A stretch of DNA of 64,000 nt from a virus (IMGVR_UViG_3300020477_001012:96001-160000); one strand, 5' to 3'; counted from the stretch's first letter, positions 3,289 through 48,500 are shown. A program made the numbers and translations. The notes: a model not told the origin generated them from the sequence alone.

Positions 3289-4166
3289 TGAAAACCTTGA
3301 TACACAATTATTCATCGGGCATGACTACTGAGCCGATGTATTTCAATAGGTGCCTTGAATTGTGCGAGACCCCAACGCACCTGTGGGCAAATGAAGTCAG
3401 CGCATTTGATATGTTTGATGCTACTCAACCAGATGTGTTCATAAGTCACTATGCAATGTTAACCAACGATATTGTTAAATATCTTAGCCAAAATAAGAAG
3501 ATTAGCACCGTGTTAAATGTGACGGGGGCAAATAATCAAGAGCTGCAAACAATCGAACAGGTTTTTTTGGACAACAAGATGAACATCCCGTTCGTGTTTA
3601 CTAACCACCATGACTCTCTTTACAAACACAAAACCAAACAAATAAAAATGGTCAACATATGGCCTTCGGTCGACATATTTTTGCCTCGTAATCCCTTGCC
3701 TGATTTTAAAATAAACTTGGCGGTGCTAGCAACAGAGATGAGTGATCTGGTTAAAAGAGCAATCGCTTCCAAGGACACGTATCACCTGTTGTCATTGTCG
3801 GGTGACGCAGAAGGGTTTGATCTTGCAGTCAATGTGCAATCTTTGGGTAACATGTACGACAAATACGACGAAGTTATGATAGCGTCGGATGTAGATACAG
3901 TGTTTTCTCAGGTGCTTTTCGAGGCCGCCTTAAGCGCAAAGAAATTGTCGATAAGAGTCAACAAGCAGCAGCAGGGGACACTAGATAAGGTTTTGGCGTC
4001 ACTCTTTCATGACGACGGAAACAAGGATGTAGGCAGTCTGGTAAAGCAACAAATAAAAAGAAAACACACCTGTGTTAACAGGGCCGCCAGACTATGCAGA
4101 TTACTAAAAAATGAAGATGCGGCCAAGCGGCTTGGAAAACTTGGAGAGCAGCTATGCGAACAGTAG
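3288..4166 (+). CDS. Hypothetical protein, possibly a degenerate CgeB/Glyco_trans_1_2-like protein
   Basis: C-terminal KHTCVNRAARL resembles the HTYxxRAxxL end of CgeB-type glycosyltransferases. Confidence 0.45.
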   Translation: MKTLIHNYSSGMTTEPMYFNRCLELCETPTHLWANEVSAFDMFDATQPDVFISHYAMLTNDIVKYLSQNKKISTVLNVTGANNQELQTIEQVFLDNKMNIPFVFTNHHDSLYKHKTKQIKMVNIWPSVDIFLPRNPLPDFKINLAVLATEMSDLVKRAIASKDTYHLLSLSGDAEGFDLAVNVQSLGNMYDKYDEVMIASDVDTVFSQVLFEAALSAKKLSIRVNKQQQGTLDKVLASLFHDDGNKDVGSLVKQQIKRKHTCVNRAARLCRLLKNEDAAKRLGKLGEQLCEQ

Positions 4167-31146: not shown

Positions 31147-33023
31147 TATTTATCCATCTCATATGTGAACGAGATATTAAAACTATAATTTCCATCCTTT
31201 GGACTCCAAGTCTCCGAAGGGGGAGACACAAAACACTTCCTGACACCCGGCTCGCTATTGGGGCTAACCTCACGCAATAATTCTGCAATCTGTGTGGCCA
31301 TTGGCTCAACTACGCTGGGCTTTTTAAGTATCAATGGGTTTCTACCAGAGCCATAAGGAATCTTAGTATAATCCATAACTAAATTCAAAGACACATCTCT
31401 TTTGTACTCTGTCCTGCCCCCAATATTTTGTAATATAGGACCAGTTGCTCTTCCTATAACGGGGACAATGGCAAAAACATCACCGGGATATGTATCGCTC
31501 ACTTGCAAAGTCTCTACTATCGCTCCAGATATAATATTTGTGGGACGATTATCAAACGCTAAACTGTAGCTAAGTTCTCCAGTGTACTCATTAGACCCTA
31601 TAGACACCGAAAGCGGTTGAGAGTTAAGCTGAACAGCAACCATATTGTTGGCACGCCTATAAATGTCTGACCCCACCCCAAAAAGCCCACTGTTGGATAT
31701 AGTGTTATATTTTCTTACGGCATTTTGATATGGGGTCTGCGCTGTTGTGGGTGTCGCCGGTGGTGGCGCCGGAGCCAAAGATTGAGGGAACCCACCAACA
31801 GGGCCTCCCAAGCCAATGCCGCCATACATTTCTCCACTGGGAGTGATGGTGCTCAGTCCCTTAATGTTGCCATCGATATTAACGCTCACGAACGGGGCGC
31901 TGTTGGATGTAGATAAATTAATATTGTAGTTCTCAAAAGCTGTGCCACTGGCCAAGAACCAGTTTTCAGTGACACTAAATGTACCCGCAGATTCACTAAC
32001 ATTCTCAGTTCTAACGCAGTTAAACCCACCATAATCATCCATTAGATTTATGACGCCACTGCTTATCTTCCCGTATATGTTGGGATAACCAGAGGGAACC
32101 GCATCCTTGTGTAAACGTTGTGTTACAAACTTCCGAGCAGATTCCCAAGCTGGAATTTTTTCTACAGATTCATTCTCCTTCATCATATAGTGTTTTTTGC
32201 CGGTAGCATTCAAAGAGTGGGATATTCTATATGACTTGGGCCTGATTTGTGTTACCCCGTTTGCATCGGTATATGTCTCGCCATTCTCGTCAACTTCAAT
32301 CGACCAGTCTTCACTGAAGTCAGCAATGAACGCCCCGCTCATTTCTACGACCAAGTCTTCTTCGGTTATACCAGAGGTTGCTGTACCGAAAGCTGGAGTG
32401 TCTAATAGTGATCTAAATTCTCCCGAAGCGTGCGGTATGAATGTTCCCTCTTGGTCTACGTTAAGGGCGGCGTCATCTCTGTGAAACAGAATGTCGGCCT
32501 CTAGGTTAATCGTATAATCTGACCTAAGAACGTATGGGCCTTCCGAGAAGTCAATATTGGTTAGTCTCGGAAAACAAATAACAGCAGGCTGGTCTTCACT
32601 AAGGTCTGTAATTTCTAGCCGTTGCCCATCCTGCGCAAACAGTGCCCTAAGTGCTCTTTGTTTTGAAATCAATGCTGTTGCATGATGATCCATAGGCACT
32701 AGCTGGGTGGGTGGCCTACTACTAACGTGAGATATATTGTTGTCAAAAGAGCCGTGTGGACCAATACGAAGGGGGGCAGGCGTGGGTATGCCAAAGAATG
32801 GGAAAGTTCCACCAACAATACCAGCGTTCAAGCCAGTGTTATCCGTAGCATAAGGCGTGCCCTCGTTGGGCAAAAGCGTGCCAGTTAATGTGATGCTGTA
32901 AGTAACACCATAAGCCTCGCCAGCACCATTCTTCAAGATGTTGGTAGATATTGAAATAAGCGGAGTGGGCCTAATGGTACACTCTTGATTTGAATCATTC
33001 TGATATCTAATTCTAATAGGCAT
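31146..33023 (-). CDS. Putative distal tail/baseplate protein (625 aa)
   Basis: Beta-strand-rich; position in the tail module; TAATG coupling on both sides. Confidence 0.55.
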   Translation of the reverse strand: MPIRIRYQNDSNQECTIRPTPLISISTNILKNGAGEAYGVTYSITLTGTLLPNEGTPYATDNTGLNAGIVGGTFPFFGIPTPAPLRIGPHGSFDNNISHVSSRPPTQLVPMDHHATALISKQRALRALFAQDGQRLEITDLSEDQPAVICFPRLTNIDFSEGPYVLRSDYTINLEADILFHRDDAALNVDQEGTFIPHASGEFRSLLDTPAFGTATSGITEEDLVVEMSGAFIADFSEDWSIEVDENGETYTDANGVTQIRPKSYRISHSLNATGKKHYMMKENESVEKIPAWESARKFVTQRLHKDAVPSGYPNIYGKISSGVINLMDDYGGFNCVRTENVSESAGTFSVTENWFLASGTAFENYNINLSTSNSAPFVSVNIDGNIKGLSTITPSGEMYGGIGLGGPVGGFPQSLAPAPPPATPTTAQTPYQNAVRKYNTISNSGLFGVGSDIYRRANNMVAVQLNSQPLSVSIGSNEYTGELSYSLAFDNRPTNIISGAIVETLQVSDTYPGDVFAIVPVIGRATGPILQNIGGRTEYKRDVSLNLVMDYTKIPYGSGRNPLILKKPSVVEPMATQIAELLREVSPNSEPGVRKCFVSPPSETWSPKDGNYSFNISFTYEMDK

Positions 33024-36000
33024 TATTTACCTCTCACCCTTAGATTTAATTGTTCAGTAGTCTGCGTGCTGGTCATATTAAGGTTAAGAGCACCTGAAGC
33101 TACGCCGCTCGGGGCATCAATGTACAATGGCATGGAGCCGCTGGCTATGTCACTGCACCCAAAAGTAACCAAGTCTACATTATTATACACATATGCTGAT
33201 GATGGGCCGGGGATCGTGAGATTCATAGACCCGCTAACAGGATGCGGCGCACCGGATATATGTAAGTTTAATGTAGCGTTAACAGGCGTGCCGGGCAATA
33301 AATCACCCGTTACGTACTCTACAAAGGGCCTGTGGGCTACAAAACCCTTAGTGGATGGATCAAATCCAGACGCCTCAATGAATATGTCTCCGTTGACGTT
33401 AGAGAAGATAATCCCGCTGGTAATGTAAGATATTGGGTCTCCTGTTTCATTCTGATACACCCTATTCGTTAGCCTGTTATTGCCATCTTCTGCTTTATCC
33501 CCAAATATCTCAACATCTATCCAGCTTCCTGCATTCGGGATAGACGGTAGCTGCTCTCTCAACATTGCGTCGTATGTGTATGCAGCACCAGCATTGGCAA
33601 GGCCACTCGTCATGTGGTTTCCACTTGTCGGGTGGTCATGGAACGGAGCGCCAACAGACAGTGTGTAATCGCTATCCCCACGCTCAGATCTATATATTGC
33701 TACAGATTGCCCAAATCCATCATTCTCACAACCACTAACAACTATAACCCCACCTGCCCCGTGAGTGGTGCCCGTTCTTGCTAAATATCCATGTGCATAT
33801 AATTTTTCTGCGTATTGCCACGTCTTGATTCTATTCGGCCAGTCTGTTATCTCGTGGCGGTAATTAAACACGGCCCCATTATTGAGAACCATGACTCCAC
33901 TGTCTCCACCAAACTGGTCGTATCTCACGCCAGAACTGCCCAAGTCATAATACTTATGTCCGGGGATTTCAAACTCCGCATTAAAGCTCTTGCGCTGGAA
34001 CGCCGAGGTGCCGCTATAAATGTGATCGTGCAGGGTTGCAAAATCATGATGTGGGGCGCCCACAGCTATCATGTCTGCATCAATAGCGACTGAATATCCA
34101 AATTTGTCTGTCCTACCAGCATGGTCTACTACAAAGTCTGAGTTGAGATTGTGGTCCCCTCTTTGTAACTGCAACTGAGACGATGTGCAATTATCCAAAC
34201 CAACATTAACGCTACTGGGTTTGATTTTTTCCTTGAATTCCCAAGGCAAGAATTCACTAACCACATTGCTTCCGCTGCCCGTTCTCTCAAAGTAGAATGC
34301 GGCTCCAGCCCCACCGTTTTGGCTGACCTTCATGCCAGATCGATTGGGGTCATTCTTAATCTCGTGCCACTGCACAATGCCACTAACACCACTGATTGCA
34401 TTCTCAGTATGGAATCCATTAAATGGAGTCCCAACAACCAGCTTGTTTTGTGATAGATCAACTGAGAAGCCAAACAGATCACCCGGACACCCAGATGTGT
34501 AGAGATCAAAATCAAGGTAGTCGGTACCATTGAACTTCATTAGGTCTGGCGGCCCGCCAATAGTTTTGGCGTCTACCAAGAAATCTTTAGTTACGCCATC
34601 TATAGTGTATAGTCCCTCGTTAAGGAAGTCTCCGCTGAATCTAGGATAAATACCAAACTTATTTACCGCTTCGGCGCCACCAAACTTATCTACTTCTTCT
34701 TTCTTTTTCTCTCCAAGAGGATCAGGCTCTCTGAGGAAGCCCGGGTTGGCGGGATGGTATGTATCTTCATTATCAACATATGAGCCTAAGTTTCCGGCGG
34801 CTCCTCCAGCCCCATAGAGAGGCATGGTTGTGTTCGCTATACCGCTCACCGCATAGTACTTGGCGGCACTGCCACGTTCCGGCGCCCTAAGCTTCTGGGT
34901 AAACTTAAACTGTCTACCAGTGTCATCATCCCCCTTCTGTGTGTTCATGCTATAGGCACTTAACGCCGAGTCCTCATGCGGACTTGTCGGGTACAGGCTT
35001 CGGATGAACTTCTGATTTTCCTTTATTGCATCGCTTCTATACTGGGGACACTGCCCCTGAATCATTGTGGAATCAGAAAGGACTACAATCTTAGACCTCT
35101 TGCCTCCAGCAGGGAACGCCGAGAACTGCTCAAATTCCTCTGCGGCAATCACGGGGCCATCTTCAATTTCATTGTCACCCCTATCATCACACCTAGCGTT
35201 TGGATTACAATACCTCTCGCTCTTGTGCTTAATTGGTCTAAATGCCCCCTTGACTGTTCCACTCTGTGCTGGCACATACCAAGGATGCTCAATGGTAATT
35301 TCACCGCTGGGAACTTGTATCCATCTGGTTGTGGTCGTTATCGTGGTCTCAATTGGGAGTGGGCACCCAGATATAGATAAAATACGCGGGGTCAATGGGT
35401 CTCCCGTGAAATCGCCATCTTTGGCAGGAATTATACCTCTGGGTAATTTATACCTGTCAGTATCAAGAGAAACCCTAATTGCAGAACCCTTGGCCCTAAC
35501 ATCCACATGCGTAGATTTAACCGAATTGGTTGCAGTATTGTTGAAATACTCATGCTGATTGAAAGACACCCTATCCATTGGGTCGTTGGGGTCTTCCTCG
35601 GCGCTCAACGAGATGTTCCGGGCTTCGCCATGAATCGTAAATTTCTCGTTGGGAGTTTCCGACACCCAGTCTACGAATATTCTATAGCCTGACCCCTCTT
35701 CAACGGGGAATTCTCCACTAGCCTTGCCGTTAATAAAGTAAATGGTTTTCTCGGTGTCATACGTGCAGGTGTCAGTAATTGCATCCTCGTAGTATACAAT
35801 TTTCTCAAAGTCCCCACCACCAGAAATGGGGATGTAATTTAACCTACTAGAGCCAGCCTCTCCCGCCTTGGGCCACAACGAGAGCTTTGGAACATTTGTT
35901 TCCACATTCACATGACTGTTCCACCCATAGCCCAGCTCGCATCCTGAAATAGCCTCTTCGGCATAGTTTAATTTTTGCTTGGGGGTCATTATGTTGCAAG

Positions 36001-39000
36001 TGTCTTGGGAGTCTACACGTTGCCGATTGCTATCACCAACTTGTGAAGACTGTTGAACAAAATAATCACCCAAACATGGACGGAAGAATGGCCTGCTGGA
36101 TATGCCCAGCTTTTCACAAAGAACCTTGACATTTTCGGCAATCGTCTGCCTCGTGTCTGGGTCCGTGCCGGAATAGGTAATTACAACCTTTTTCTTTCCA
36201 CCCTTAAGCCAGTTCTTTATAATCGAAATGTCACCATCATCTGGCTGGCCATCAGGATTAGCAATCCACAGAACGTCTACAGCCGCAGGAATAATGTCAC
36301 CTTCATTGTATATTTGATTCTCTTTAACGGCGTGATTTCCGTCTGTATCAATATACAAATTGAGCCTATCCAAAAGAACCGATCCATCATATGCTTCTTT
36401 AAATGATTGACGCTTAGTCCACCCTCCTAGCTGCACAATTAATGGCGCTTCGTCACAATCGTTCTTCACTAAATTCGCATAAAAGTAATGATTCCTATCG
36501 CAGTTACCATTGGGATCGTCAAACGCCTCCTCGCTCTCCCCGTTCAAGTGGGCGAGCAGATAAACGTTGTTATTGTCATCTACAGGGTTGCCATCTTCAT
36601 CGTCGTAGATATATTTCTCACGTAACGCTAAAACGCTTTCGTCTGAAAGTACTTTGTTAACCTTTTTAACTCCGCTTTCGATCATCCAATCGCCTCTACC
36701 CTGAACCAAGGCGTCTCGACGATTTTCTGCGGTTGCCGTTGGCCAAGGATCTGGGTCAATAAAGCCCCCTTGGGTTTTTTCTACATCAAAATAATTGTAG
36801 ATTCCGCTAACGTTGGAGTTGGAATCTTCAGCAACGTTGAAAGCCACTTCTTCCAAGTTGTAGTCAGCAAACTCAACCACCTTGTCAGTGGTGACCTTTT
36901 TGATAAACTTGTAAATAGTTCGTTTTTCAATACGCACACCGCTTCTGGCGGGAATGTACCAATGTGTATCTGGTAGGAACTCGGCGGCAGTTAGAATGGG
37001 CGAAACATCTTTATATGGTCTGTTGATAAACGGTTGAGGATCTACTGGGTAATCATCGCAGCCTTGCGCCGCGTTCGGATTAGCAAAATGAAAGCCCCAG
37101 TTCTTTTGGTACAGAACTTTGACTTTGTTACCTCTGCCAACTGTTTTTTCACATTCCTCTGTCCACTCTGCCCGTAGATCTCCATTATGTTTTAGGGGCA
37201 TATTGCAGACATCTGCATTCAGCTTATCGCATGGGGCTATCTGGACCATTTCTTGTAAATCGATATCTGACAGGTCCATCCTGATGTCGCCCACACCTTT
37301 GGCAAATATGTTATCGGTGCTAATCTTAGACTTGTAGCCATCGTACTTGGTGTGAGCGTATGTGGGCACATATGCTTTGGTTACATTCCACCTGTCATTA
37401 GAAACATCAGAAGAACTCACGCAATCCGGTAGCGATTCGTATTTTGTCGCCGCCGGATGGATACGCATTCTAGATCCCAGCTTACCAAGAATCTTATTGA
37501 CCAACTTGTTAGAATCGCCATACAAACCGTTTTCTTCATACACTGGGTCGTTACCAACCAGCACCAGCGTTCTATCTCCAAGGGCCAACCAGTGCTTAAT
37601 GTTGTCAATGATCTCATCGCTCGCAGCGTCAAGTTCTGGAGTAATAATAAACGCCAAACCAGCGTCTCTGGGGATTTCTATTTCAGAGAAGTCCATCCTT
37701 CTGAAGGACTTGTCATCTGGCTGGAAGTACAAGCCCATTTGATCATAGAAACCCTGATCTCGCTCTGTCTCATGAGCGGATCTGTCGAGGTTGCCAAACC
37801 TAGTGAACTCCACTACGCCACTATGGGGAATATATTTTCTGGACTCAAACATCCTCACAGCACCAGCGTTTGTGTAGGAGGCCCAAGTGTTCTTTTCTTT
37901 ATACCAAACATTAGTATCTTCAAACAGTGTCGTCGAATCAGTGGGGGCACCAAAGGCGACAATGTCTCCATCATCACTGACAGACGTGCTGTATCCTAAT
38001 CGAGATGTGCCTGCAAATTCATTTAAAATGAACTTCCACGTTCCGGTCGAGGTGATGTCGGAATAAGCATATTGATAAACTGGCTTATATAGCTCAATAG
38101 TTTTGTTAGTACCCCAGAAGTTTTCATCAATTCTAAAACTAAATTTATTACTCTGGGACAACTCGTGATACACCACATTCTGTGCTACAGACTTTCCAGA
38201 AGCAGCCAGAAGATCATCATACCTATTCACCTCAGCAGTCATTGATGTGAATACGAGCCAGTCCCGAAGGTTCTTATACATACGCTCATTTTCAGAATTG
38301 TCTCTTTCAAAGATTTCGCAAGGAGTATTCGTGAATGGAGAACCTATAGAAACTACCTGAGAATTTTGGCTAATGCCCACAGAGTGACCAAAGCGGTCGT
38401 TATATTCATCACGATATGGACCCAACCACTCCTCGTTCGACGCAGCAGTATTAGAGGGGTCTGTAACGGCCCCGCCGGTGTGGTATGTGCCACCACCTCC
38501 GAACTTCAAGGATTCTCTTACGCTAAGAGGTTTGATCTCTTGCACACAATTAAATATGCCACTTTCTTTCTCGAATATGTAAACTCTACCACCAGAACCC
38601 GGAGGAATTTGGAACTCATAGGCATTCGGATTTGCCCACTCTTGGCCAACGCCACTGGTAATGAATTTCATTACGTCATTATTGATTAAATAGCCAGAAT
38701 CAAGAGTGTCATGGATCAAATCTATAGACGTGTCAGCCCAATCCAGTGAAGACCCAGCCACCCTTCTGACGTGTCCAGTAGCAGCCAAGTCTACGTTGGG
38801 ATCAATGACGCCGCTTGCGTAAGAATACTGTTCATAGAAATCAACAAACTCATCAATGATACTTACGCCATCATGCACAAAAGCAGCGCCATTCATTGAA
38901 CTTGGGCTGCGTTCCTCGAACAGGCCCATAATTGGGGGTATGCCACTGTGGGGAGAAAATTCACTAGAGCCGCTCGGGAACACACGTAAGAACCCATTTT

Positions 39001-42000
39001 CTTTTATGCCGCTCAACATTCTGTCGTGGGTTTCCTGTTTTAGGTCAGCTAGATCTGGGTCTATCATACTTGGAATCCACGTATGGTGGAACCAACTCGG
39101 CCCCTCTGGCTCTTGCTTTGGCTCAGACCCTTTGTATGTCTCGAAGACCATAACATCCACGTTGATTTGTGGCTGGAATTCTTCTGGCGTCTGGGCGTTC
39201 CATGGAGCGGAGAAATATTTATACAATATGTCCCACTTGCCCGCTGCGTTTCCAATTCGACCAATGTCGGCTTCACTGTATTGAAACTCATCAATGAACA
39301 CAAACATGCAAACCGGAATGCCCGACGTTTGAATATCCTGAAACTTGCGGCTCCACCCAGCAAACGGGGCGCCAACGATAATGGTCTCTCTGTCTCCGCT
39401 AGCCCCGATGTCTAATGAGCTGCCAAACCTTCTGCCCTCTTGGCCAATATTCCATCTTTGGCCGGAAATACTAAATGTATCAAATTTAATAAGGTTGTCT
39501 ACTACCTTGCTGACATAATCCCTTCTGAAACCTGACGGCAGCATGAGTTGGTCCTGCATCTGCCAGTCTGCCTTCTTGCCCGCAACATCAGCTCCACGCC
39601 GATACACGAACGCAGAGCCTGCGTCTGGTATCATGTGCCCAGAACTATCTGCTATTTCTCTACGCGGAGCAGAAACAACCATGGCATCATCCATCACAGC
39701 CACGGCCTTGCCATACTGATCTTGCAGGTCTCGGGTGTTAGGAGGCGTGAGTGATGCATCGCCGCTCATGTGTGGGTAGTCGCCAATCATCTTGGCACCA
39801 GAATATACTAAGTTTTGATCGCAATCAGCGGTGCAGCATCCACTATCTGAATAGAAATCAGGCCCGCAGATTCCATACTCCCAGTCCTCAAAGTTTCTGG
39901 GAACCTTAATGGCATCAGTAGAGCCGGTGGTGATTTTCATTGTTGCCCAATATGGGGCGTGCGGGATAAGATTCCGACTTTTTCTTATACCATAATAATT
40001 GCCACTGTAGCCCAGCCCGCCAGAGAAGTTTATAGCCCCAGAGTTGGTATATAAACCAACAGCCCTGAAAATTCCCCCGTCATTACACGTCTCTTCTCTC
40101 CAGACTGTGTCATCAGTAACAATCGCCTTGTCAATGGCTTTGCGTGGGCTGTCACTCAGACAATGACCATAACCAATAAGGTCCACACCTCTTATTTCAT
40201 TGCCAACAGGTAACGATGCATATGTGTTGTCTTCTATATTTATACCGGTTCCATAATTATAATTGAACCAATTGAAGAACGTAGAGCCAACACCCCCGTA
40301 ATTGGACATAAACAGGTTCATACCCAGTTGCGGGCTACCAGTCGTCCCCGTCCCACTGGATGAGGCAAAACTGGTGGTAAGATCATCCCCATAAAGCACT
40401 AAGTTCATGTTCTCAGAAAGCAGCGGTGTGCCCTCTATGAACAGGTTCATCTTAACTAATGGTAAAGAATCCACCAAAGATGTAGAACCAAGGGTAAACA
40501 GGTTCAACAAAGTAGAAGAAGCTACCGGATCGGCAGCGTGAGTGTTTGCAAGGACCAACGGCATAGAATCTCTAAGGCCCACAGAACCACTGGTGGCATA
40601 AGTAAACAGTGGTAATAGCCCGCCGCTTGGAACATAAGATAGATCGTCGTTCCGAATCGAAAGCGGGAAGATAGCTGACCCAAGCCCAACACCTTCAACA
40701 TTTAAGTTAAATGCCCCACTGCCATCAGTAATTGGATAATATTTACCAGAAACATTAAGATTGATTCCAGAACTTTGCGTTACATAGCTTAGGGTGTTAA
40801 GGTGGAGACTTTGCAACTCTCTAAATGAACCACTAGTGAATAGCGTAAGGCCAGAGCCGTTATAACCACCAGCTCCCCCGGTTCCAGAGCTGCCCAGCCC
40901 TATCGGCCCGACAGCAAACAAGTTTAATATACCGCTGTCAGACGGAGCGTAGTTCTTTAAGAATAAGTCCAGATTTTGCGCAACAACATTACCACCACTG
41001 GCGATCAAGTTTACGTTAGAATTGGCATCAGTGTCCTTAACGTATGCATCATCCAATCTCACATGGGAGGTATGGATATTAATTCTAGACTCAAACGGTT
41101 TGCCAGAAGGATACACCAAGTCATATTGCAGGAACATGTCGTCGACATCCTGCGAATAATATTTCTCAGAGAATTCGCTAAGAACAGGCTCGTCTGGGAA
41201 GAGCGCCCACTGTTCAGACGTGTCTACTAGACTATCATATGTAAACTTACTGTCAACCCTCATAATACAGCTTGAAGGCTCTAAATAATGTATGTCTCTA
41301 TTGATCAGGCCCCAGTTAGGCTCATCAGGAACCCAGTACGGTTCTTTCTTCTTGGTGTACAAACTAACAATAAGCTTGGGTCCAACCGTGCCCGTACAAT
41401 TTGGCCACACAATATCATGGTCAGTTTTGTGCTCCATTACGGTTTCGACAACCAAGGCCCTATCGGAGAATACATAATCACGAGGTAAGTCTTTGGTAAT
41501 CCTTCTTTGGGTAGAATAGAAGTTGTCAGAGGTATCACTCAAATGGAATCGCAAGAAGTCATTCTCGATCTGAGTATGATACGACACCCCACTGTCAACG
41601 TTTGAAGGAAGTGTTAGATCGTTTCTGGTTATATATCCAGAACCATCATGGTTGATATTAAAGCTAACAAGGTCGCGGCCAGTACGCTTGGTGAGCTGAT
41701 TAAACGCTATGCCAAACTGGCAATACTTGAACGCACCTATATCCCAATCTGAATAAGTATTCTCATTAACATAATCCCAGAGCTTAAACGTATCAATATG
41801 ATAATCTTCATCTGGACTGTAGAACTTAGCCCGATGATTGTCAAAGAACTTCTCAGCAGTCACCTGCTTGTATGTTGCGTCTGGATTGGCTTCAACAATG
41901 TTGGTGCCGGAGCCTTTGACTCCCACCGTGTAAGTGGAAATACCAAACTCACTGAGTAGCATGTTCATCCCAACGCCAGAGCCGGGAGAGTGACCCACAA

Positions 42001-45000
42001 TCAAATTAGCGTTAGTGGTGTTCTTGTAGAATGGGACTGAACTAGCTCGTAAGAACAGGTGGTCGCCATCAAACCCATCACCAAAATCATGGGTATAAGT
42101 GTTCCGGTCGGCCTCATTGTCAGTATAAAGTTTCAGCCCGCTACCATTGTGGTCGTTATAAGTAAGAATAACGGACAGTGGGAATTGATAGCCACTATAC
42201 GGAAGGGTGTCAGCAACCGTAATAACATTGCCATCTATGTCTTTAGAGTACCCACACAGGAATCCTCCACTATAACCAAGGGCAAAGTCAAGATCTGCTG
42301 CACTGTCCCATTTAGAGAAGAGCACGCCAGAATTGAACAGATTGTAGTCTACTCCGCTAATATTAGCATCTGGTGTGAACCTAGTAAATATGGAGAACCC
42401 GCTAGTGGTGTCTATATTCCCAAAATTGATATTTTGACTGTGGCCGGATATTCTAACAACGTTATTGAATGCGTCTGCAATACGCCCATAAAGCTTGTCG
42501 TCCTCAAAGTTGGTGGAAGTGGAATCATTGGTCATGGATGTCCAGTCACTTGTCTTATAAGCCCCGCTATAACCCGGGAGTTGGTCACTGAACAATGTGC
42601 CGCTGCTAAATCTCCAGCCGATGTTTTTGTATATCTCAGGAGTAGTGCTAAACAGGCCGCTCACGTTGCCGAAGCCACTCCCCAGTGGGCGAGACTTAAC
42701 ATAGAGACCGTCCATCTCGTCAAAATCATAAAATCCAGACAGGAACGGGAAGTCCATGTGCGGATTCTCAAACCCGAACCCAAACATGTCTGGGTCAAAC
42801 GGACCACGGACGGTGCCCTCCATCCCTCTCCATCGACGGGAATAATTAGATTTTATACTAGAGGGCGTAGTAAAGGCGTGGGGAATTCCCTCAATCGTGG
42901 AAATTGGCCCATAACCGGAACCCGCATTAAGCATGTCATCTGTAGAGCCGCGCGATATCGGATAGATCGACCCTTCGGACCTACCATCCTGTATCTTGCG
43001 TATCTTATCCCCACCCTCAATGGACAACTTGAGGGCATTTTGCGGCTTGTACCTAACCAGCAAATGCACGCTTGCGATGCTGGCCCCACTGGGGAGTGGG
43101 TATATGTCTAAGTATAAGTGCTCAAAAAGAGAACTCATGCTGTAGTCTCTGGATTGACCCAGAGTTACCCGGTCGTCATATATCTTAAGTGGCACTTCAT
43201 AGTCGACAAAGTCGGTAGTGCTGACCACAGGATAGTTTGTCAAAGAGTAGTGATCGCCCCCAAGGTTTCCACTAGTTTCAGTGTATCTTTCTTTTTCAGA
43301 TAAACTCTCAGAGGCAATAGCAAGGTCGTCGCCATCGGCCAAAAATCCAGAGGTAACGGGATGAGTGCCATCGCTGCTGATTATCTGATCATTGAGCTGT
43401 ACGCTGTATGGATTTTGCAGAAAGCCACTAGGAGCACTGCTAACATTTAACAGTCCATCATCACTATATCCAACCACATCCAAAACGTAGTTTCTTGATC
43501 CGGTAGCCTTTTTAGCCTTGACCTTAAGTGTAATAGATTCAATGTCAAAGAAGCCATCGTCTACACCTAGCTGGGTTCTGTTTTGAGTATTGAAAGCTCC
43601 ACTGGGATCGAACCAAGTGGGGCAGATGGTCTGGTCAAAACCACAATCAAAAGCACCCTTAGTGACTTCATTAACTATTCCCCTGCCGTGGGAGAATTTA
43701 AGGGTTAGCTTTCCAGAATCCAGATGAGGCCCCGTAGAGTGAAGCTCGGCGTAGTCATGGGCGGTCTCTCTTTGTATTGCCGAAACTAATCCAGTGGCAC
43801 CGCAAGAATCCAAGTTGGAGCCTATAGTGACATGTCCCATGTTGCTATTTTTATGGTGCCAAATACTACTGACAGAAGGCCAAACCCCAGTGTCAAATTC
43901 AGCAAGAGGCATAAAGGATGGGAGAATCTTACGCTCCAGTCTTCGTCCCTTCTCGGGAACTTGGGCAAACAGGCCGATGTAGTCCTCTGGCCTTGGACCA
44001 TATCCGCCACTATTGCATATTTCTAATGCAGAGATTCTAATCGCTTTAGTCGGGTTAATTAAAGATTGATCTTGAGTAGATAATGGGGCGCCGTCTAACG
44101 CTAGGTAATCATCCCCGCTGGCGTATGTATCATGTATTATATAGTTGTCTTCAAAACCATCGCTAAAACCGGGAGCAAATGGATCATCCAACGCTTCAGA
44201 TCTAACATCGAATGTTAATTTATACCCACTAATCTGATACATATGAGGGGCGGATGTACGCTGCCAATCATACAGATCCGCCTTGTTGGTAACAGCCGCT
44301 GAAGAGTAGGTGGAAAAGTTAGCGTGAGTAGCTGAATTTGTATAGTCTACATCTCCATATACAATAATGTCTTCATACTTAACCACCAAGTTGCCAGATG
44401 GATCTTCAAACTTAATGTTATGGATAGTATATCTTGGGGGAACATTAGCTTCATAGTTATTGATCGGAGCTGAAGCCCTGATCCGTAAGCGGGTCTCCTC
44501 TGGTCTGACAAGGAAGTTGGTTAAGTTACACTTATATTGAAATAGCCCTTCTGTGTGAAACGTGTCGGGGTGGATAAATGAGTTGGCGTCGTCTGATATA
44601 ATAATACTGTTGCCAAACTGCTTATCATAGTCGCCCGTAAAGACGCCTTCGTCAATGAAGCGGTAAAGGTTGCCAGACGAGTTGTCTGAGCCAACAAAAT
44701 TGCCCATACCGGCATCGATGGGCAGGTCTCCGCTTGGGTAGAGTTTTTCTACGCATTCAAAATCACCAAAATCTCCATAGAACTTATCGGCGCGGGTTGC
44801 TCTAAGATTAAATCCGCCCAGCATCTTTTGATGAATGTTGTAGTCAGTTGTAAGCCCATTGTTAATTTTCCCCACAGCAGATAGGGAGTTTTCCCCCATT
44901 CTTATGCGACCAGACAACTTAGAGGAAATATGCACTGAGGCCGCAATAGATGTGGAGCACACCCTTGCCCTAGCAAGTCTGGGGTTGGACTGCTCAGTCT

Positions 45001-45466
45001 CGCTGCATAATTTGATAAGGCATATGTTGTCATACCCACCTGAGCACAAGCTAGAAATGGGCGTGTCAGGGGCATCTTGACCCAGACGATAAAAAAGGAT
45101 TATCTCCTTACTGTTGATGCCCAAGATAGAATATGTATACGTCTGACCCGACTTCTCTATGGTGGCAATATCCCCAACAGAGATATAGCAAGATACGGCT
45201 TCTTTAAGGGTGACGGTATAAATTGGGCCTGTACCGTCAACATCTGTAAACTCTACAGATTGGCAGAACTTATAGGGGGAAAAAAGCAGGCCGGTGCAGT
45301 GCATTCCGGCTCTGGATTCTCTACCGCACTTGCTTGTTACAATGTTCTTTTTAAGGGCGACATTGCAACTTAATTTGGCTTTAACCGTAATACCAGTAGC
45401 TGTCAAGGTGCCTGTTGCGGCCTTGACGCATAAGCATTCTAAGGTTTTTAAGTGCCTATTAGCCAT
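33023..45466 (-). CDS. Giant virion adhesin-like protein (~4147 aa) with a LamG-like domain and seven FG-GAP repeats
   Basis: FG-GAP motifs such as FGYSVAIDADMIAVGAP and FGSSLDIG...IIVGAP; LamG-like FSIFTRF...LFSKW...VILTY...LKLYTD; directly downstream of the tape measure gene. Confidence 0.75.
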   Translation of the reverse strand: MANRHLKTLECLCVKAATGTLTATGITVKAKLSCNVALKKNIVTSKCGRESRAGMHCTGLLFSPYKFCQSVEFTDVDGTGPIYTVTLKEAVSCYISVGDIATIEKSGQTYTYSILGINSKEIILFYRLGQDAPDTPISSLCSGGYDNICLIKLCSETEQSNPRLARARVCSTSIAASVHISSKLSGRIRMGENSLSAVGKINNGLTTDYNIHQKMLGGFNLRATRADKFYGDFGDFECVEKLYPSGDLPIDAGMGNFVGSDNSSGNLYRFIDEGVFTGDYDKQFGNSIIISDDANSFIHPDTFHTEGLFQYKCNLTNFLVRPEETRLRIRASAPINNYEANVPPRYTIHNIKFEDPSGNLVVKYEDIIVYGDVDYTNSATHANFSTYSSAAVTNKADLYDWQRTSAPHMYQISGYKLTFDVRSEALDDPFAPGFSDGFEDNYIIHDTYASGDDYLALDGAPLSTQDQSLINPTKAIRISALEICNSGGYGPRPEDYIGLFAQVPEKGRRLERKILPSFMPLAEFDTGVWPSVSSIWHHKNSNMGHVTIGSNLDSCGATGLVSAIQRETAHDYAELHSTGPHLDSGKLTLKFSHGRGIVNEVTKGAFDCGFDQTICPTWFDPSGAFNTQNRTQLGVDDGFFDIESITLKVKAKKATGSRNYVLDVVGYSDDGLLNVSSAPSGFLQNPYSVQLNDQIISSDGTHPVTSGFLADGDDLAIASESLSEKERYTETSGNLGGDHYSLTNYPVVSTTDFVDYEVPLKIYDDRVTLGQSRDYSMSSLFEHLYLDIYPLPSGASIASVHLLVRYKPQNALKLSIEGGDKIRKIQDGRSEGSIYPISRGSTDDMLNAGSGYGPISTIEGIPHAFTTPSSIKSNYSRRWRGMEGTVRGPFDPDMFGFGFENPHMDFPFLSGFYDFDEMDGLYVKSRPLGSGFGNVSGLFSTTPEIYKNIGWRFSSGTLFSDQLPGYSGAYKTSDWTSMTNDSTSTNFEDDKLYGRIADAFNNVVRISGHSQNINFGNIDTTSGFSIFTRFTPDANISGVDYNLFNSGVLFSKWDSAADLDFALGYSGGFLCGYSKDIDGNVITVADTLPYSGYQFPLSVILTYNDHNGSGLKLYTDNEADRNTYTHDFGDGFDGDHLFLRASSVPFYKNTTNANLIVGHSPGSGVGMNMLLSEFGISTYTVGVKGSGTNIVEANPDATYKQVTAEKFFDNHRAKFYSPDEDYHIDTFKLWDYVNENTYSDWDIGAFKYCQFGIAFNQLTKRTGRDLVSFNINHDGSGYITRNDLTLPSNVDSGVSYHTQIENDFLRFHLSDTSDNFYSTQRRITKDLPRDYVFSDRALVVETVMEHKTDHDIVWPNCTGTVGPKLIVSLYTKKKEPYWVPDEPNWGLINRDIHYLEPSSCIMRVDSKFTYDSLVDTSEQWALFPDEPVLSEFSEKYYSQDVDDMFLQYDLVYPSGKPFESRINIHTSHVRLDDAYVKDTDANSNVNLIASGGNVVAQNLDLFLKNYAPSDSGILNLFAVGPIGLGSSGTGGAGGYNGSGLTLFTSGSFRELQSLHLNTLSYVTQSSGINLNVSGKYYPITDGSGAFNLNVEGVGLGSAIFPLSIRNDDLSYVPSGGLLPLFTYATSGSVGLRDSMPLVLANTHAADPVASSTLLNLFTLGSTSLVDSLPLVKMNLFIEGTPLLSENMNLVLYGDDLTTSFASSSGTGTTGSPQLGMNLFMSNYGGVGSTFFNWFNYNYGTGINIEDNTYASLPVGNEIRGVDLIGYGHCLSDSPRKAIDKAIVTDDTVWREETCNDGGIFRAVGLYTNSGAINFSGGLGYSGNYYGIRKSRNLIPHAPYWATMKITTGSTDAIKVPRNFEDWEYGICGPDFYSDSGCCTADCDQNLVYSGAKMIGDYPHMSGDASLTPPNTRDLQDQYGKAVAVMDDAMVVSAPRREIADSSGHMIPDAGSAFVYRRGADVAGKKADWQMQDQLMLPSGFRRDYVSKVVDNLIKFDTFSISGQRWNIGQEGRRFGSSLDIGASGDRETIIVGAPFAGWSRKFQDIQTSGIPVCMFVFIDEFQYSEADIGRIGNAAGKWDILYKYFSAPWNAQTPEEFQPQINVDVMVFETYKGSEPKQEPEGPSWFHHTWIPSMIDPDLADLKQETHDRMLSGIKENGFLRVFPSGSSEFSPHSGIPPIMGLFEERSPSSMNGAAFVHDGVSIIDEFVDFYEQYSYASGVIDPNVDLAATGHVRRVAGSSLDWADTSIDLIHDTLDSGYLINNDVMKFITSGVGQEWANPNAYEFQIPPGSGGRVYIFEKESGIFNCVQEIKPLSVRESLKFGGGGTYHTGGAVTDPSNTAASNEEWLGPYRDEYNDRFGHSVGISQNSQVVSIGSPFTNTPCEIFERDNSENERMYKNLRDWLVFTSMTAEVNRYDDLLAASGKSVAQNVVYHELSQSNKFSFRIDENFWGTNKTIELYKPVYQYAYSDITSTGTWKFILNEFAGTSRLGYSTSVSDDGDIVAFGAPTDSTTLFEDTNVWYKEKNTWASYTNAGAVRMFESRKYIPHSGVVEFTRFGNLDRSAHETERDQGFYDQMGLYFQPDDKSFRRMDFSEIEIPRDAGLAFIITPELDAASDEIIDNIKHWLALGDRTLVLVGNDPVYEENGLYGDSNKLVNKILGKLGSRMRIHPAATKYESLPDCVSSSDVSNDRWNVTKAYVPTYAHTKYDGYKSKISTDNIFAKGVGDIRMDLSDIDLQEMVQIAPCDKLNADVCNMPLKHNGDLRAEWTEECEKTVGRGNKVKVLYQKNWGFHFANPNAAQGCDDYPVDPQPFINRPYKDVSPILTAAEFLPDTHWYIPARSGVRIEKRTIYKFIKKVTTDKVVEFADYNLEEVAFNVAEDSNSNVSGIYNYFDVEKTQGGFIDPDPWPTATAENRRDALVQGRGDWMIESGVKKVNKVLSDESVLALREKYIYDDEDGNPVDDNNNVYLLAHLNGESEEAFDDPNGNCDRNHYFYANLVKNDCDEAPLIVQLGGWTKRQSFKEAYDGSVLLDRLNLYIDTDGNHAVKENQIYNEGDIIPAAVDVLWIANPDGQPDDGDISIIKNWLKGGKKKVVITYSGTDPDTRQTIAENVKVLCEKLGISSRPFFRPCLGDYFVQQSSQVGDSNRQRVDSQDTCNIMTPKQKLNYAEEAISGCELGYGWNSHVNVETNVPKLSLWPKAGEAGSSRLNYIPISGGGDFEKIVYYEDAITDTCTYDTEKTIYFINGKASGEFPVEEGSGYRIFVDWVSETPNEKFTIHGEARNISLSAEEDPNDPMDRVSFNQHEYFNNTATNSVKSTHVDVRAKGSAIRVSLDTDRYKLPRGIIPAKDGDFTGDPLTPRILSISGCPLPIETTITTTTRWIQVPSGEITIEHPWYVPAQSGTVKGAFRPIKHKSERYCNPNARCDDRGDNEIEDGPVIAAEEFEQFSAFPAGGKRSKIVVLSDSTMIQGQCPQYRSDAIKENQKFIRSLYPTSPHEDSALSAYSMNTQKGDDDTGRQFKFTQKLRAPERGSAAKYYAVSGIANTTMPLYGAGGAAGNLGSYVDNEDTYHPANPGFLREPDPLGEKKKEEVDKFGGAEAVNKFGIYPRFSGDFLNEGLYTIDGVTKDFLVDAKTIGGPPDLMKFNGTDYLDFDLYTSGCPGDLFGFSVDLSQNKLVVGTPFNGFHTENAISGVSGIVQWHEIKNDPNRSGMKVSQNGGAGAAFYFERTGSGSNVVSEFLPWEFKEKIKPSSVNVGLDNCTSSQLQLQRGDHNLNSDFVVDHAGRTDKFGYSVAIDADMIAVGAPHHDFATLHDHIYSGTSAFQRKSFNAEFEIPGHKYYDLGSSGVRYDQFGGDSGVMVLNNGAVFNYRHEITDWPNRIKTWQYAEKLYAHGYLARTGTTHGAGGVIVVSGCENDGFGQSVAIYRSERGDSDYTLSVGAPFHDHPTSGNHMTSGLANAGAAYTYDAMLREQLPSIPNAGSWIDVEIFGDKAEDGNNRLTNRVYQNETGDPISYITSGIIFSNVNGDIFIEASGFDPSTKGFVAHRPFVEYVTGDLLPGTPVNATLNLHISGAPHPVSGSMNLTIPGPSSAYVYNNVDLVTFGCSDIASGSMPLYIDAPSGVASGALNLNMTSTQTTEQLNLRVRGK

Positions 45467-45500
45467 CAAAAAATATCCTTTATGTCCTGCATCTTAAGAG

Positions 45501-48500
45501 TTATTCACCCATACCGGCGATTTTCTTTAGTCCATTGTTAGTTGCTTTGTATTTAGGTATTTCGTCACGCACGGCGTCAAGCACTATATCTCTAATGGCT
45601 GGTTCAAGTTTTGGAAGAACCACGTTAACACTGATGGGCGGCATGGAGTTAATATCAACACCCATGGTAAACCCTGTAAGCTTGTCAATAGCATTGGCAA
45701 ATGAGGTTACAGCCGTGCCTAACGCTGGCATAGCATCACCAAACATTGAACCCATTTTCTGCACAAGGTCACCAAATTGATAATAACCAACTGGACCGCC
45801 TGCGCTCATGGCGGTGGCGGGCGCGGTGGCATCTTGTCGACCACTGCTATTCATGGCCCTAAGTATCTGCAAGTTATTACCACGATTAACGGCAGCACGA
45901 TTAACCACAAATTCTCCCGGGGTCAACATGGCAGGAACAGTGTCAGTTCCACGAGGAACAAAAATACCCCTATTGGCATAAACTACGCCGCCTCTATACA
46001 TGCCAGCTAGTTCTCCCACTCCCCTATCTGCCGCAGTTTGCGAGGCCACTTTTCGTTGCATCGTTTCATCAAATACTACTTGAGCATTTGTAATTGTTAC
46101 TGTAGCCTTAGCAACTTCCATCTTCTTAATCTCTGCCATTTGCTGGGCTTGGGCGCCCAACTCTGAGGCCAACCCTCTACCCTCAGCTCGCAGGGCCTCA
46201 GTTTCTGCATCTCGCCCAACCATGACTCCGGCAGATCTGGCATCCGTAATGCCCATAGTCGACAGAGTGATACCAGCAGCCCGTTGCATTTCCGCATCAG
46301 ACATCCCAGTGCCTTCTAGGCTCTTCATTCCGGCACCAAGGGCTGACGGGCTAAACAAGCTAGCCATGTTGGCGTCCCCGGCTCGTAAGGCGGCAGCAGC
46401 CCCAGCAGCGGCTTGTTGCTCGATGAAACCCTCAATATCTCCAGCCATTAATTTTTCAAAAGAACTTTTTTCAGCAGCATTCTTCTTGGCTATAATAGCA
46501 ATCTCTTCCTTGATTTGATCAATCCTCTGTCTCGTCAGAGCCATAAGGGCATCGTTGGTCTTGGCTAATTCTGTTGTTCTATCTTCGTCAATTCCTCCCG
46601 GCCCCTGAAAACCACCGCTGGCCTTGCGTGCCATCTGCACATCAGTCTTGGCTGCCACCTCTTCTCTTGCTCTGGCAAGCTCGCCAGCACTAGCATTGCG
46701 AAGAGTCTTGATCCCAGCGTCTTGGGCGACCAAGTTGAACTGAGCCACACGCGCTTGCTCTTTTTGTTCTGAGCTAAGCTTGTCTCCACCAAAGTCCTCA
46801 AAAATCTTAGCTGCCTGTAACTGCACATCAATAGCTTTCTTCTGTGCCTCAATATAGGCAAGCTCTGACGCCCTCCTAGCCTTGGTTAATGCTACGATGG
46901 TCTTTTGGTGTTCCAGTACAGCCTTGGCGGATTCCAGAGCAGTTTTTCTGAGTGGGTCTAAGCCGGATTTGATTTCTTCAATTAAACTGCTCGCGTCTCT
47001 GCCTCTGATGTCTCCTAGACTCTGAACAGCCCCCATTATAGCTTCTTGGGTAGCCTTGTCGGTAACACCAGCTAACAGGGAAGTTTCTAAGCTTGACTTG
47101 GCTGCCGCCTCACTACTTTGGTTAATGTCTAACCCGCTAATTCGCTTCTGCAAGCTGCCCATGAACTGGTTAACGCCCTGCGCCCGATCAAATGACCGGT
47201 TAACAGCTTGACCAACAGAGCTATTCTCACCCCCACCGACTGAGGCTAAAACTTGTTCGCGCGCGTCGTTTAAAGCCCTCTCGCCCTCTTCTCCCATCCC
47301 CATGTTAGCTTGAGCAGTCTCTATGGTCGCAATAGTGCTTTCTAATGCCAGCGATCCGGTTTCTAACGACGATAAGAAGTTATTCACAGCGTTGCTCGAC
47401 GCGGCGAACACCGACATAACCTTAAGATTATCAAAGTTTGCTTTCGCTACCGCCTCCATCGCCGCTTTCATCTTGAAGGCCGCAACTGCTGCCGCTTTCT
47501 GTGCCTCTGCTCCTGCGGCAGTAGCGCCTCCAAACTCATCAAAGAATTTAGTAAGCTGATTAATGCTCGTGGCATTCTTACCCATAATCGCGGCAGCTTC
47601 TAGTTCTTGTTTCTTGAGGGCATTTAACTTTTCAGTCTTTGCCTGCCCCTCATCCATCCTATTGATGAAACCCATAGCCTCGGTGCTGGACCTTAACACC
47701 GACTCGCCCAGCTTTTCTACCTTAACTCCTCCAGCTCCCACAAATTCGCTCGCTCTACCCTCTACGGTCTTTCCAGTCTTTGCTTCTTCAATGAACTTGG
47801 ACTGTTTGCCCACCGCCGCCTCTGTCGCATCCGTTGCTGCCTGAGTAACGACCTGTTGGTGTATCTGGTCTCTTAGTTCTTTTGGGTCCGTAGTAAGCGC
47901 CCTGATGATTCCTTGCATGGTGAACATCTCCGAAAATGCTTCATTCATTGCACGCTCTTGTCCAGCCTTGCCCGCCCCCGTCACATCTCCTTTGTCTTTT
48001 GCTTTTTCAGCTTTTCTTCCGGCTATCTCCGCTAACGCCCCGAACACTTGACCTGAAATCATGGCTGCCGACATCGCTAGTCCCGCCGCACCGCCAATGG
48101 CGGTAGCGCCCCTGCTCATGCCTTTCCCGACCCTGCCCTTCATGCGGGACATCATCCCGCCACCTTTCGTTTTTCGCATCTGGGCGTTCATTTTCTTCAG
48201 GGCGCGAGCAGCTTTGTTGGCGTCTTTTGGTAGTATCTTTAATTGCTTACGGAAGCCGTTGAGCTTCTGTTTGCCCTTTGTGAAGCCAATGCTTAATAAT
48301 TTCAACCCGTATCTGTACCCTTTGGTTCCTTTTAACGCTTTCCTTTTTGCTATTAGCTCTCTGTTTAGTTCCCGCCCGTATGCCCTCGCGTGCTTCACGG
48401 CGGGATGATAGTGTTTGGCCTCTTTGTTTCTAGTCATCGCCAATTTTTTGGCAGAAGTCCGAAGATTGTTCTGGCTACCAGCTAATTTCTTGTTGGCTTG

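Follow-up and report, generated by a model that had tools for sequence, protein, structure and literature searches.

A giant gene in the tail module of a marine virus raises the question of whether seven FG-GAP units, spread over about 2,000 amino acids (aa) of a single polypeptide and separated by large insertions, build one integrin-alpha-like propeller, and what such an interrupted propeller would do in a phage tail. The gene lies in the 64,000-nucleotide stretch IMGVR_UViG_3300020477_001012:96001-160000 (hereafter, the window), at positions 33023..45469 of the minus strand, which also carries all other features of the window described below; it spans an open reading frame (ORF) of 4148 codons counted from a TTG. 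The gene is real and strongly constrained, with a ratio of nonsynonymous to synonymous substitution rates (dN/dS) of 0.02-0.13 along its whole length, and it occupies the tape-measure-proximal position in the tail module. The reading that we favor, with moderate confidence, is that the product is a giant virion tail protein in which two blocks of blades (1-4 and 5-7) close into one seven-blade propeller, two inserts are looped out of this ring, and the whole serves adhesion to host glycans.

The number of blades is central to the question. A preliminary description of the sequence had listed seven FG-GAP motifs, and all of them are found within one ORF, at residues 1918, 2014, 2359, 2490, 3665, 3789 and 3918 (window positions 39718, 39430, 38395, 38002, 34477, 34105 and 33718). 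The Pfam family FG-GAP_2 (PF14312) matches the protein with E = 1.1 × 10−18 and 67.6 bits, against a cut-off of 23, detecting 4 of the 7 blades, and was recovered as well in the genome-wide scan. With a custom profile built from the seven blades of 41 relatives, seven sites were obtained with independent E-values (i-E) from 9 × 10−9 to 1.5 × 10−16, the next best site among the 4148 residues having an i-E of 0.18; no eighth blade was detected with this profile across the whole protein. The seven motifs are conserved throughout the family: exactly seven blades, at near-constant spacing (median distances of 101, 338, 129, 1178, 127 and 126 aa), were counted in 151 of the 173 relatives that are at least 3400 aa long. 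The exceptions are the most divergent members, in which the profile loses blades, one relative (P0079) with an extra N-terminal match, and one unrelated repeat protein of 7078 aa. By its sequence, then, the protein is a member of the FG-GAP_2 repeat class.

Blade 1 spans aa 1913-2005 (39455..39733) and is defined by the motif, the blade profile and the structural model. The same three lines of evidence place strands 1-2 of blade 2 at aa 2008-2040 (39350..39448), whereas strands 3-4 of this blade follow only at aa 2290-2315 (38525..38602; strands 406-413 and 416-423 of the model) and have the appearance GRVYIF, in keeping with the GA(A/V)(Y/F)-type strand that had been described after most of the motifs. 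Blade 3 (aa 2355-2470; 38060..38407) and blade 4 (aa 2485-2556; 37802..38017) are likewise supported by motif, profile and model. Strands 3 and 4 of blade 3 are set apart by some 65 helical residues (2391-2454), an insertion that the preliminary description had not mentioned. Blade 5 (aa 3659-3780; 34130..34495) is supported by the motif, the profile and a two-chain model, blade 6 (aa 3784-3910; 33740..34120) by Pfam, the motif and the profile, and blade 7 (aa 3912-3975; 33545..33736) by the motif and the profile. Blades 5 and 6, at about 125 aa, are twice as long as the usual FG-GAP blade and must bear sizeable loops of their own.

For the first block, an AlphaFold2 (AF2) model of aa 1890-2600 (blades 1-4 with the first insert) was computed from an alignment of 119 sequences (pLDDT 83.3, pTM 0.73). 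Strands 1 and 2 of every modelled blade come from its FG...GAP motif. Blades 1-4 can be superposed on a run of four adjacent blades from integrin alpha chains with Z = 18.3 over 196-203 aa, at a root-mean-square deviation (rmsd) of 2.7-3.0 Å and 19-20% identity. Integrin chains occupy most of the top structural ranks (17-24% identity); a WD40 chain, WDR5, appears at rank 5 (Z = 16.2), the WD40 matches having about 10% identity.

Whether the two blocks belong to one ring was addressed by folding the natural pieces, aa 1909-2557 (blades 1-4 with the first insert) and aa 3650-4000 (blades 5-7), as two separate chains. The interface score ipSAE was 0.77, 0.77 and 0.75, compared with 0.00 for the best of three controls; in a benchmark, 58 of 80 solved complexes attained that mark, as did 2 of 110 mismatched pairs. 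The runs had at least 83% of their contacts in common, with a partner pLDDT of at least 65 (65-72) and expected errors of about 1 Å. Two contacts are confident: blade 4 (aa 2490-2511 and 2532-2542) touches blade 5 (3650-3681), and blade 1 (aa 1913-1936 and 1958-1969) touches blade 7 (3921-3967). The four-blade arc thus meets the three-blade arc at both ends, as it would in a single closed seven-blade ring. Conceivably, the four and three blades could instead be partial rings that are completed between the subunits of an oligomer, in a domain-swapped arrangement, or could stay open, given that parts rather than the full chain were folded and that the partner pLDDT is moderate. We regard either arrangement as very unlikely: both arc ends meet in the model with expected errors of about 1 Å against controls at 0.00, and four plus three blades make seven, the number of blades in integrins, a count that is conserved across the family. 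Accordingly, residues ~1913-3975 are predicted with good confidence to fold into one closed, integrin-type, seven-bladed propeller, as the preliminary description had proposed, and additional blades that would point to several propellers were not found.

The insert sizes given in that description (about 250 and about 1100 aa) also held, the first insert comprising aa 2041-2289 and the second, of about 1,095 aa, comprising aa 2557-3655. Insert 1 (38603..39349) is an alpha/beta domain located in the loop between strands 2 and 3 of blade 2, as seen from its secondary structure and a pLDDT of 82-95 per 10-residue block; strands 3-4 of the blade resume only past this domain. When the model of blades 1-4 with insert 1 was used as the query in Foldseek, the integrins that bear an alphaI domain (alphaM, alphaX, alphaL and alphaE) came out on top with long alignments and E-values of about 10−6, compared with about 2 × 10−3 for integrins without an I domain. 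The VIA structural alignments to integrins, which span some 200-240 residues, cover the blades only and do not extend to insert 1. An invariant Asp follows the first hydrophobic strand of insert 1, within the motif DxFxY. The metal ion-dependent adhesion site (MIDAS) motif DxSxS was found at the aligned site in none of the 119 relatives, 103 of which have DxFxY; a MIDAS-bearing von Willebrand factor A (vWA) domain is therefore ruled out for insert 1 by the lack of DxSxS. A third GIFT-like domain, of the kind described below for insert 2, is ruled out as well (hhalign probability below 1%).

The similarities and differences between the phage protein and alphaI integrins (alphaM, alphaX, alphaL and alphaE; PDB 7usm, 5e6u and 4neh) can thus be delineated. 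Shared features are the seven FG-GAP blades, the modelled four of which superpose with Z = 15-18 at 17-22% identity, an alpha/beta domain looped out near blade 2, and the display of an insert by a rigid hub. In contrast to integrin alpha chains, which have DxDxDGxxD calcium hairpins in blades 4-7, a pattern search detected no such hairpins in the phage protein, in which the 1-2 loops are short, and a Pfam scan with E-values up to 1 shows FG-GAP_2 only, with no thigh or calf (Integrin_alpha2) domains. Furthermore, insert 1 is located inside blade 2, in the 2-3 loop, and not between blades 2 and 3, as it is in alphaI integrins, and DxFxY replaces the MIDAS motif DxSxS. The second insert between blades 4 and 5 and the helical insertion in blade 3 also set the protein apart from integrins, as does its nature, that of a phage virion protein for which there is no beta-subunit gene. 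Lacking calcium hairpins, thigh and calf domains and a MIDAS site, the phage protein is not an integrin. It resembles the FG-GAP_2 repeat proteins of bacteria and viruses, scoring above the gathering threshold of that family and sharing with it a short motif without calcium loops. It differs from typical members in having blades of 90-130 aa with extended loops and in that the array is broken by about 1,400 aa of inserts.

The second insert was folded by AF2 as aa 2540-3720 (pLDDT 83.2, pTM 0.68), and the model is best described from the outside inwards. The best structural match is the N-terminal domain of IFT52, with Z = 15.3 and 15.0 over 202-208 of 228-242 residues, followed by other GATase1-like structures, namely the C-terminal part of site-1 protease (Z = 14.1), STM3548 (Z = 13.0) and a ThuA-like protein (Z = 12.8). 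Since the GIFT/IFT52 alignments extend from model residue ~10 to ~960, the ~200-residue domain is apparently built from two segments that are about 700 residues apart. The first part of this GIFT/DUF4350-like domain 1 (GIFT-1) spans aa 2588-2740 (37250..37708), with a weak Pfam DUF4350 match in addition to the IFT52 similarity (Z = 15.3), and the second part spans aa 3434-3545 (34835..35170), where the GIFT, ThuA and GATase1-like structural alignments reach model residues 956-993. No Pfam match was detected for the returning segment, in either aa 3425-3560 of this protein or the equivalent region of nine relatives, so the split of GIFT-1 is a structure-based assignment. No other 50-residue stretch of the protein is as conserved as aa 2601-2650 within GIFT-1 (86% identity). 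Just past the first part of GIFT-1, at window positions 37058-37231 (aa 2747-2804), four Cys residues (alignment A2 positions 208, 216, 234 and 265) are invariant or nearly so and could form disulfides or a metal site.

Within GIFT-1, two exceptionally long strands (model residues 303-328 and 834-860) stand on either side of a jelly roll and probably pair as an antiparallel ribbon. The outgoing half of the presumed ribbon, or stalk, is a beta region with a 26-residue strand at aa 2768-2870 (36860..37168; model strands 284-328), which we infer to act as a stalk; the returning long strand lies at aa 3372-3420 (35210..35356; model strand 834-860). The jelly roll between them resembles carbohydrate-binding modules (CBMs): the closest, TmCBM61, aligns with Z = 10.6-10.7 over 140 of 145-146 residues, at an rmsd of 2.9-3.0 Å, and CBM16, CBM4, CBM22 and CBM35 match at Z = 9-10, which is a likeness of fold. 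Further look-alikes are domain III of Cry toxins and the C-terminal domains of CBA120 TSP4 and of Klebsiella phage fibres. No CBM family was detected by Pfam with E-values up to 1. The jelly-roll alignments are discontinuous, running from model residue ~334 to ~833, with the first part at aa 2873-2972 (36554..36853; TmCBM61, Z = 10.7) and the second, placed by structural alignments, at aa 3219-3371 (35357..35815).

Nested inside the jelly roll is a second GIFT/DUF4350-like domain (GIFT-2; aa 2990-3180, 35930..36502), which is indicated by Pfam DUF4350 matches in relatives, by hhalign and by an alpha/beta pattern. Pfam DUF4350 matches insert 2 at two separate places: in the protein of the window the score is 17.1 bits, below the cut-off of 30.4, and in the relatives P0020, P0025, P0032 and P0049 it is above the cut-off, at 31.7-33.9 bits, as the whole-segment sum over two stretches. 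The Pfam family ABC_transp_aux also matches the GIFT-2 region in relatives, and the two GIFT-like domains are related to each other (hhalign probability of 85-91%). A shape search of the ESM Atlas with insert 2 retrieved DUF4350/GldG-like models with TM up to 0.70; feature look-ups in the same resource, which serve as leads only, gave 0.81 for insert 2 (DUF4350/GIFT) and at most 0.90 for aa 200-1500 (LamG/ConA-like viral proteins). Taken together, these matches predict that insert 2 is a nest, in which the propeller holds GIFT-1, GIFT-1 holds the ribbon with the jelly roll, and the jelly roll holds GIFT-2. When a free-standing insert 2 was sought among 1.84 billion representatives, only the same family, its fragments and generic FG-GAP repeats were retrieved.

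The similarity to GIFT/DUF4350/GldG-type GATase1-like domains (IFT52, 5fmr and 5fms; ThuA-like, 1t0b; PF14258 and PF09822) is substantial, with Z = 12-15 and 200-218 residues aligned. The phage protein is distinct in that it has two copies, the outer of which is split by about 690 aa and lacks a conserved Cys nucleophile, and in that the known domains of this type function in gliding, ABC-transport and ciliary settings, whereas here they occur in a phage tail protein. These similarities bear on the possibility that the protein is an enzyme, that is, a polysaccharide depolymerase or other glycan-modifying protein that would remove capsule or slime as the phage adsorbs. Among the structural matches are many glycoside hydrolases (including GH42, GH164, GH5 and an endo-arabinanase) in which GATase1-like domains and CBMs occur as well, and several polysaccharide lyase families are beta-propellers. 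However, these structural matches cover accessory rather than catalytic domains of those enzymes, and no catalytic family was matched in Pfam, NCBIfam or PHROGs. Moreover, in the first part of GIFT-1, where the GATase1 nucleophile would be located (model residues 45-205), the lists of conserved residues contain no Cys that is invariant or nearly so, so the GIFT-like domains are presumably non-catalytic. An enzymatic role appears highly improbable.

The loops of a four-stranded propeller blade are shared out between its two faces, loops 2-3 and 4-1 opening on one and loops 1-2 and 3-4 on the other; in integrins, it is the face with the 2-3 and 4-1 loops that binds the ligand and carries the inserted alphaI domain. 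Here, insert 1 occupies a 2-3 loop, and insert 2 is flanked by blade 4 and the first strand of blade 5. Provided that aa 2551-2554 form the outer strand of blade 4, both large inserts are on the same face and the helices of blade 3 are on the opposite one; hence, both inserts would leave the ring from the face that corresponds to the ligand-binding face of integrins.

Under the adhesion reading, the chain would exit the propeller first in the loop between strands 2 and 3 of blade 2, to form the 250-aa alpha/beta domain, and again after blade 4, to form the ~1,095-aa nested module. In that module, a non-catalytic GIFT/DUF4350 (GATase1-like) domain would be interrupted by a long two-stranded beta ribbon, and this ribbon would bear a CBM-like jelly roll that is itself interrupted by the second GIFT-like domain. 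The propeller would serve as a rigid hub that evolves slowly, and the inserts as an arm that changes faster and whose lectin-like head may contact glycans of the host surface. The protein would adhere to these glycans at the far end of the tail, which would be very long and of the non-contractile type, with specificity possibly added by the N-terminal Calx-beta, cadherin-like, LamG and RCC1-like modules of relatives. Gene position and folds point to such adhesion at the distal tail end as the most likely function. Tentatively, and with more doubt than confidence, we suggest that the three-level nest builds a rigid arm, with a lectin-like head extending from the face that binds ligand in integrins, that the protein is a single-chain receptor-binding device convergent with alphaI integrins, and that a large and abundant lineage of long-tailed marine phages, uncultured throughout, has it as its conserved organ of adsorption.

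The family is large, and its evolution bears on these proposals. At E ≤ 0.001, 355 clusters (90% identity) were retrieved; the best 120 of the 355 share 42-92% identity with the query and, with two exceptions, span aa 1880-4148 in full. When insert 2 was the query of an exhaustive profile search, 120 clusters (50% identity) were obtained at E < 10−30, all of them this family or its fragments. All come from marine metagenomes, the viral fractions of Tara Oceans among them. The relatives are about 3,600-5,400 aa long, with the length variation located in the first ~200 residues and around residue 1600, and both inserts are present in every one of them. Mean identity to the query is 0.51-0.73 for the blades and 0.60 for GIFT-1, compared with 0.42 for insert 1, 0.36 for the ribbon, 0.30 for the jelly roll and 0.37 for GIFT-2. 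Relative to the closest relative (92% identical), dN/dS is 0.023 for the blades and 0.05-0.09 for the inserts, so no diversifying selection on the inserts was detected in this comparison; synonymous sites are saturated already with the next relative. Compared to a 71%-identical relative, dN is 0.087 for the blades and 0.28-0.31 for insert 1, the ribbon, the jelly roll and GIFT-2. As judged from these sequence comparisons, the inserted domains evolve about three times faster than the hub and yet are under clear purifying selection. The preliminary description had suggested comparing the inserts among homologues; they do change about threefold faster than the blades, but they are never missing, their dN/dS is low, and they are not the most variable part of the protein. 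Being present in every relative and subject to purifying selection, the inserts are ruled out as exchangeable cassettes.

The most variable part is the N-terminal 199 aa (window positions 44873-45469), with a mean identity of 0.16 and 40% gaps, and, on the same alignments, the truly variable, domain-swapping part of the protein is these N-terminal ~200 residues. The longer relatives bear Pfam domains of the Calx-beta, cadherin-like, Big_9, LamG and RCC1 types, which most likely lie at or near the variable N-terminus. The N-terminal ~200 aa are a candidate specificity region, and such a location at the N-terminus of a tail protein is unusual.

This pattern of conservation is compatible with a different role as well, whereby the propeller and its inserts form a structural hub onto which the downstream tail-tip proteins dock, and the host is bound by these proteins or by the variable N-terminus. 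The four co-directional genes that follow the giant gene encode proteins of 625, 184, 1609 and 1371 aa, and this downstream gene set is conserved. The presence of the inserts in all relatives under purifying selection, the location of domain swapping at the N-terminus rather than in the inserts, the most conserved stretch of the protein within GIFT-1 and the IFT-B complex subunit IFT52, whose N-terminal domain is among the structural look-alikes, are all in line with a docking hub. Conversely, the folds nearest to the jelly roll are carbohydrate-binding modules and receptor-binding domains of tailspikes and toxins, and the rate of change in the distal parts of the nest is three times that of the blades, which would be unusual for a purely internal scaffold. 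We consider the docking hub a serious though rather unlikely alternative to host-glycan adhesion by the inserts.

Several observations weigh against the adhesion reading. All of the structure is predicted, and from partial chains; the closure score may in part reflect the predictor's memory of solved integrin propellers and is possibly inflated, because such propellers are abundant among solved structures. The strand at aa 2551-2554 is ambiguous, belonging to either blade 4 or the GIFT domain, with the integrin alignments ending at ~2545 and the GIFT alignments beginning at ~2549, so that the exit loop of insert 2 and the same-face argument are uncertain. The nesting was read from the first and last aligned residues, the order of secondary structure elements and two Pfam matches, and the CBM-like Z-scores of 9-11 are just moderately over the background quoted for the tool. 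The inserts are under purifying, not diversifying, selection, and GIFT-1 is as conserved as the blades, a pattern that is no less compatible with a structural or protein-docking role than with ligand binding. Finally, no sequence match of the whole protein was found to Dit, Tal, fibre or receptor-binding families in PHROGs, Pfam or NCBIfam. The earlier idea that one propeller is a platform displaying inserted domains at the tail tip thus fits the nested GIFT/CBM-like module and its approximately threefold faster change, with the tail-tip and receptor part of that idea drawn from gene order and fold likeness only.

The genomic setting is consistent with a tail location. Upstream, at 45501..52403, is the gene for a tape measure protein of 2300 aa, which matches PF10145 (PhageMin_Tail; 93.5 bits) and several PHROG tape-measure families, and 32 bases separate its stop from the start of the giant gene. 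The giant gene directly follows the tape measure gene, as do the genes of distal tail proteins in siphophages. In a 44%-identical relative the tape measure gene is likewise immediately upstream; in one relative, the tape measure is 1834 aa long. At about 0.15 nm of tail per tape measure residue, 2300 aa correspond to a tail of roughly 350 nm. Gene order, together with fold likeness, suggests that the giant protein belongs to the tail, probably at its distal end or tip.

The source genome, an IMG/VR virus record of 173,842 bp, is complete according to CheckV. A putative large terminase (663 aa; L007:934-2925, in the same genome but outside the window) has about 25% identity to its best matches from cultured phages, namely the Bacillus phages Stills and Slash and the Microcystis phage MaeS. 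Comparison of the giant gene and its product with 50,697 phage records (megablast and tblastn) produced no match, which, along with the low terminase identity, indicates a lineage without a cultured relative in the collections searched. No PHROGs family and no NCBIfam family was matched by the whole protein, and sequence-profile searches of the PDB with aa 200-900, 880-1520, 1890-2600 and 2540-3720 returned chance-level matches only.

Propellers are known from other phage host-recognition proteins: gp131 of phiKZ is seven-bladed (PDB 4GBF), and Gp45, the receptor-binding protein of the Staphylococcus phage phi11, is a five-bladed platform that is not of the FG-GAP type. The giant protein would share with both the use of a propeller as a binding platform in a tail or fibre protein. 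These propellers are contiguous and terminal, and we know of none that has been described with large domains nested in the ring. Foldseek searches of BFVD retrieved viral FG-GAP propellers, mainly from giant viruses and a few uncultured Caudovirales, with E-values from 5 × 10−8 to 10−4. Compared to the giant protein, these and the protein of a recent preprint (10.1101/2025.10.05.680483) are much shorter (280-1350 aa), with no sign of a 4+3 split or a nested insert. In that preprint, FG-GAP repeat proteins of marine viruses are treated as putative adhesion or host-recognition proteins; the literature on FG-GAP in phage tails or cyanophages yielded nothing specific beyond it. The architecture had been called unusual for a phage, and this stands for the nested variant, not for FG-GAP propellers as such, which are already known from phages and giant viruses. 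A ring into which about 1,400 aa are inserted, a three-level nest among them, and that is conserved across a large uncultured marine phage family seems not to have been described before.

If the model holds, the principle of integrins, whereby a binding domain is looped out of a seven-blade FG-GAP hub, extends to a phage tail protein with a much larger, multiply nested insert, which bears on the tolerance of propellers to insertions and on the convergence of a phage with adhesion receptors of metazoans. The protein also marks a large family of phages without a cultured member (more than 350 clusters at 90% identity and, at E < 10−30, about 120 at 50%). Host specificity is most obviously to be sought in the jelly roll and the N-terminal modules, and recombinant fragments could be used as probes for identifying the host.

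Three minor features of the gene deserve mention. Codon 2 of the ORF is an ATG (45466), whereas the ORF finder had taken the TTG at 45469; the closest relatives begin at that Met, and members of the cluster are 4146-4147 aa long. The true start is therefore probably the ATG at 45466, giving a protein of 4147 aa. Compared to the closest relative (L008:201-12641), nucleotide identity in 100-codon windows alternates between ~0.96-0.98 and 0.75-0.85, and the synonymous rate (dS) by segment ranges from 0.12 to 1.6, with the most divergent patches at aa 1604-1803, 3005-3304 and 4105-4148. This mosaic of identity suggests frequent, patchy recombination within the gene.

Beyond the propeller, the C-terminal 173 aa (33026..33544) end in short repeats of the xNLxxxG type. 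Repeats of about 15-19 aa with the core xNLxxxG or LPLxxxG (such as LNLFAVG, MNLFIEG and LNLHISG) occur at window positions 40220-40969 (aa 1501-1750) and 33026-33292 (aa 4060-4148), flanking the propeller region on both sides, and nowhere else in the tail module. In relatives, up to ~290 additional residues follow aa 1600. The repeats could form a fibrous shaft, either a beta-spiral or a solenoid.

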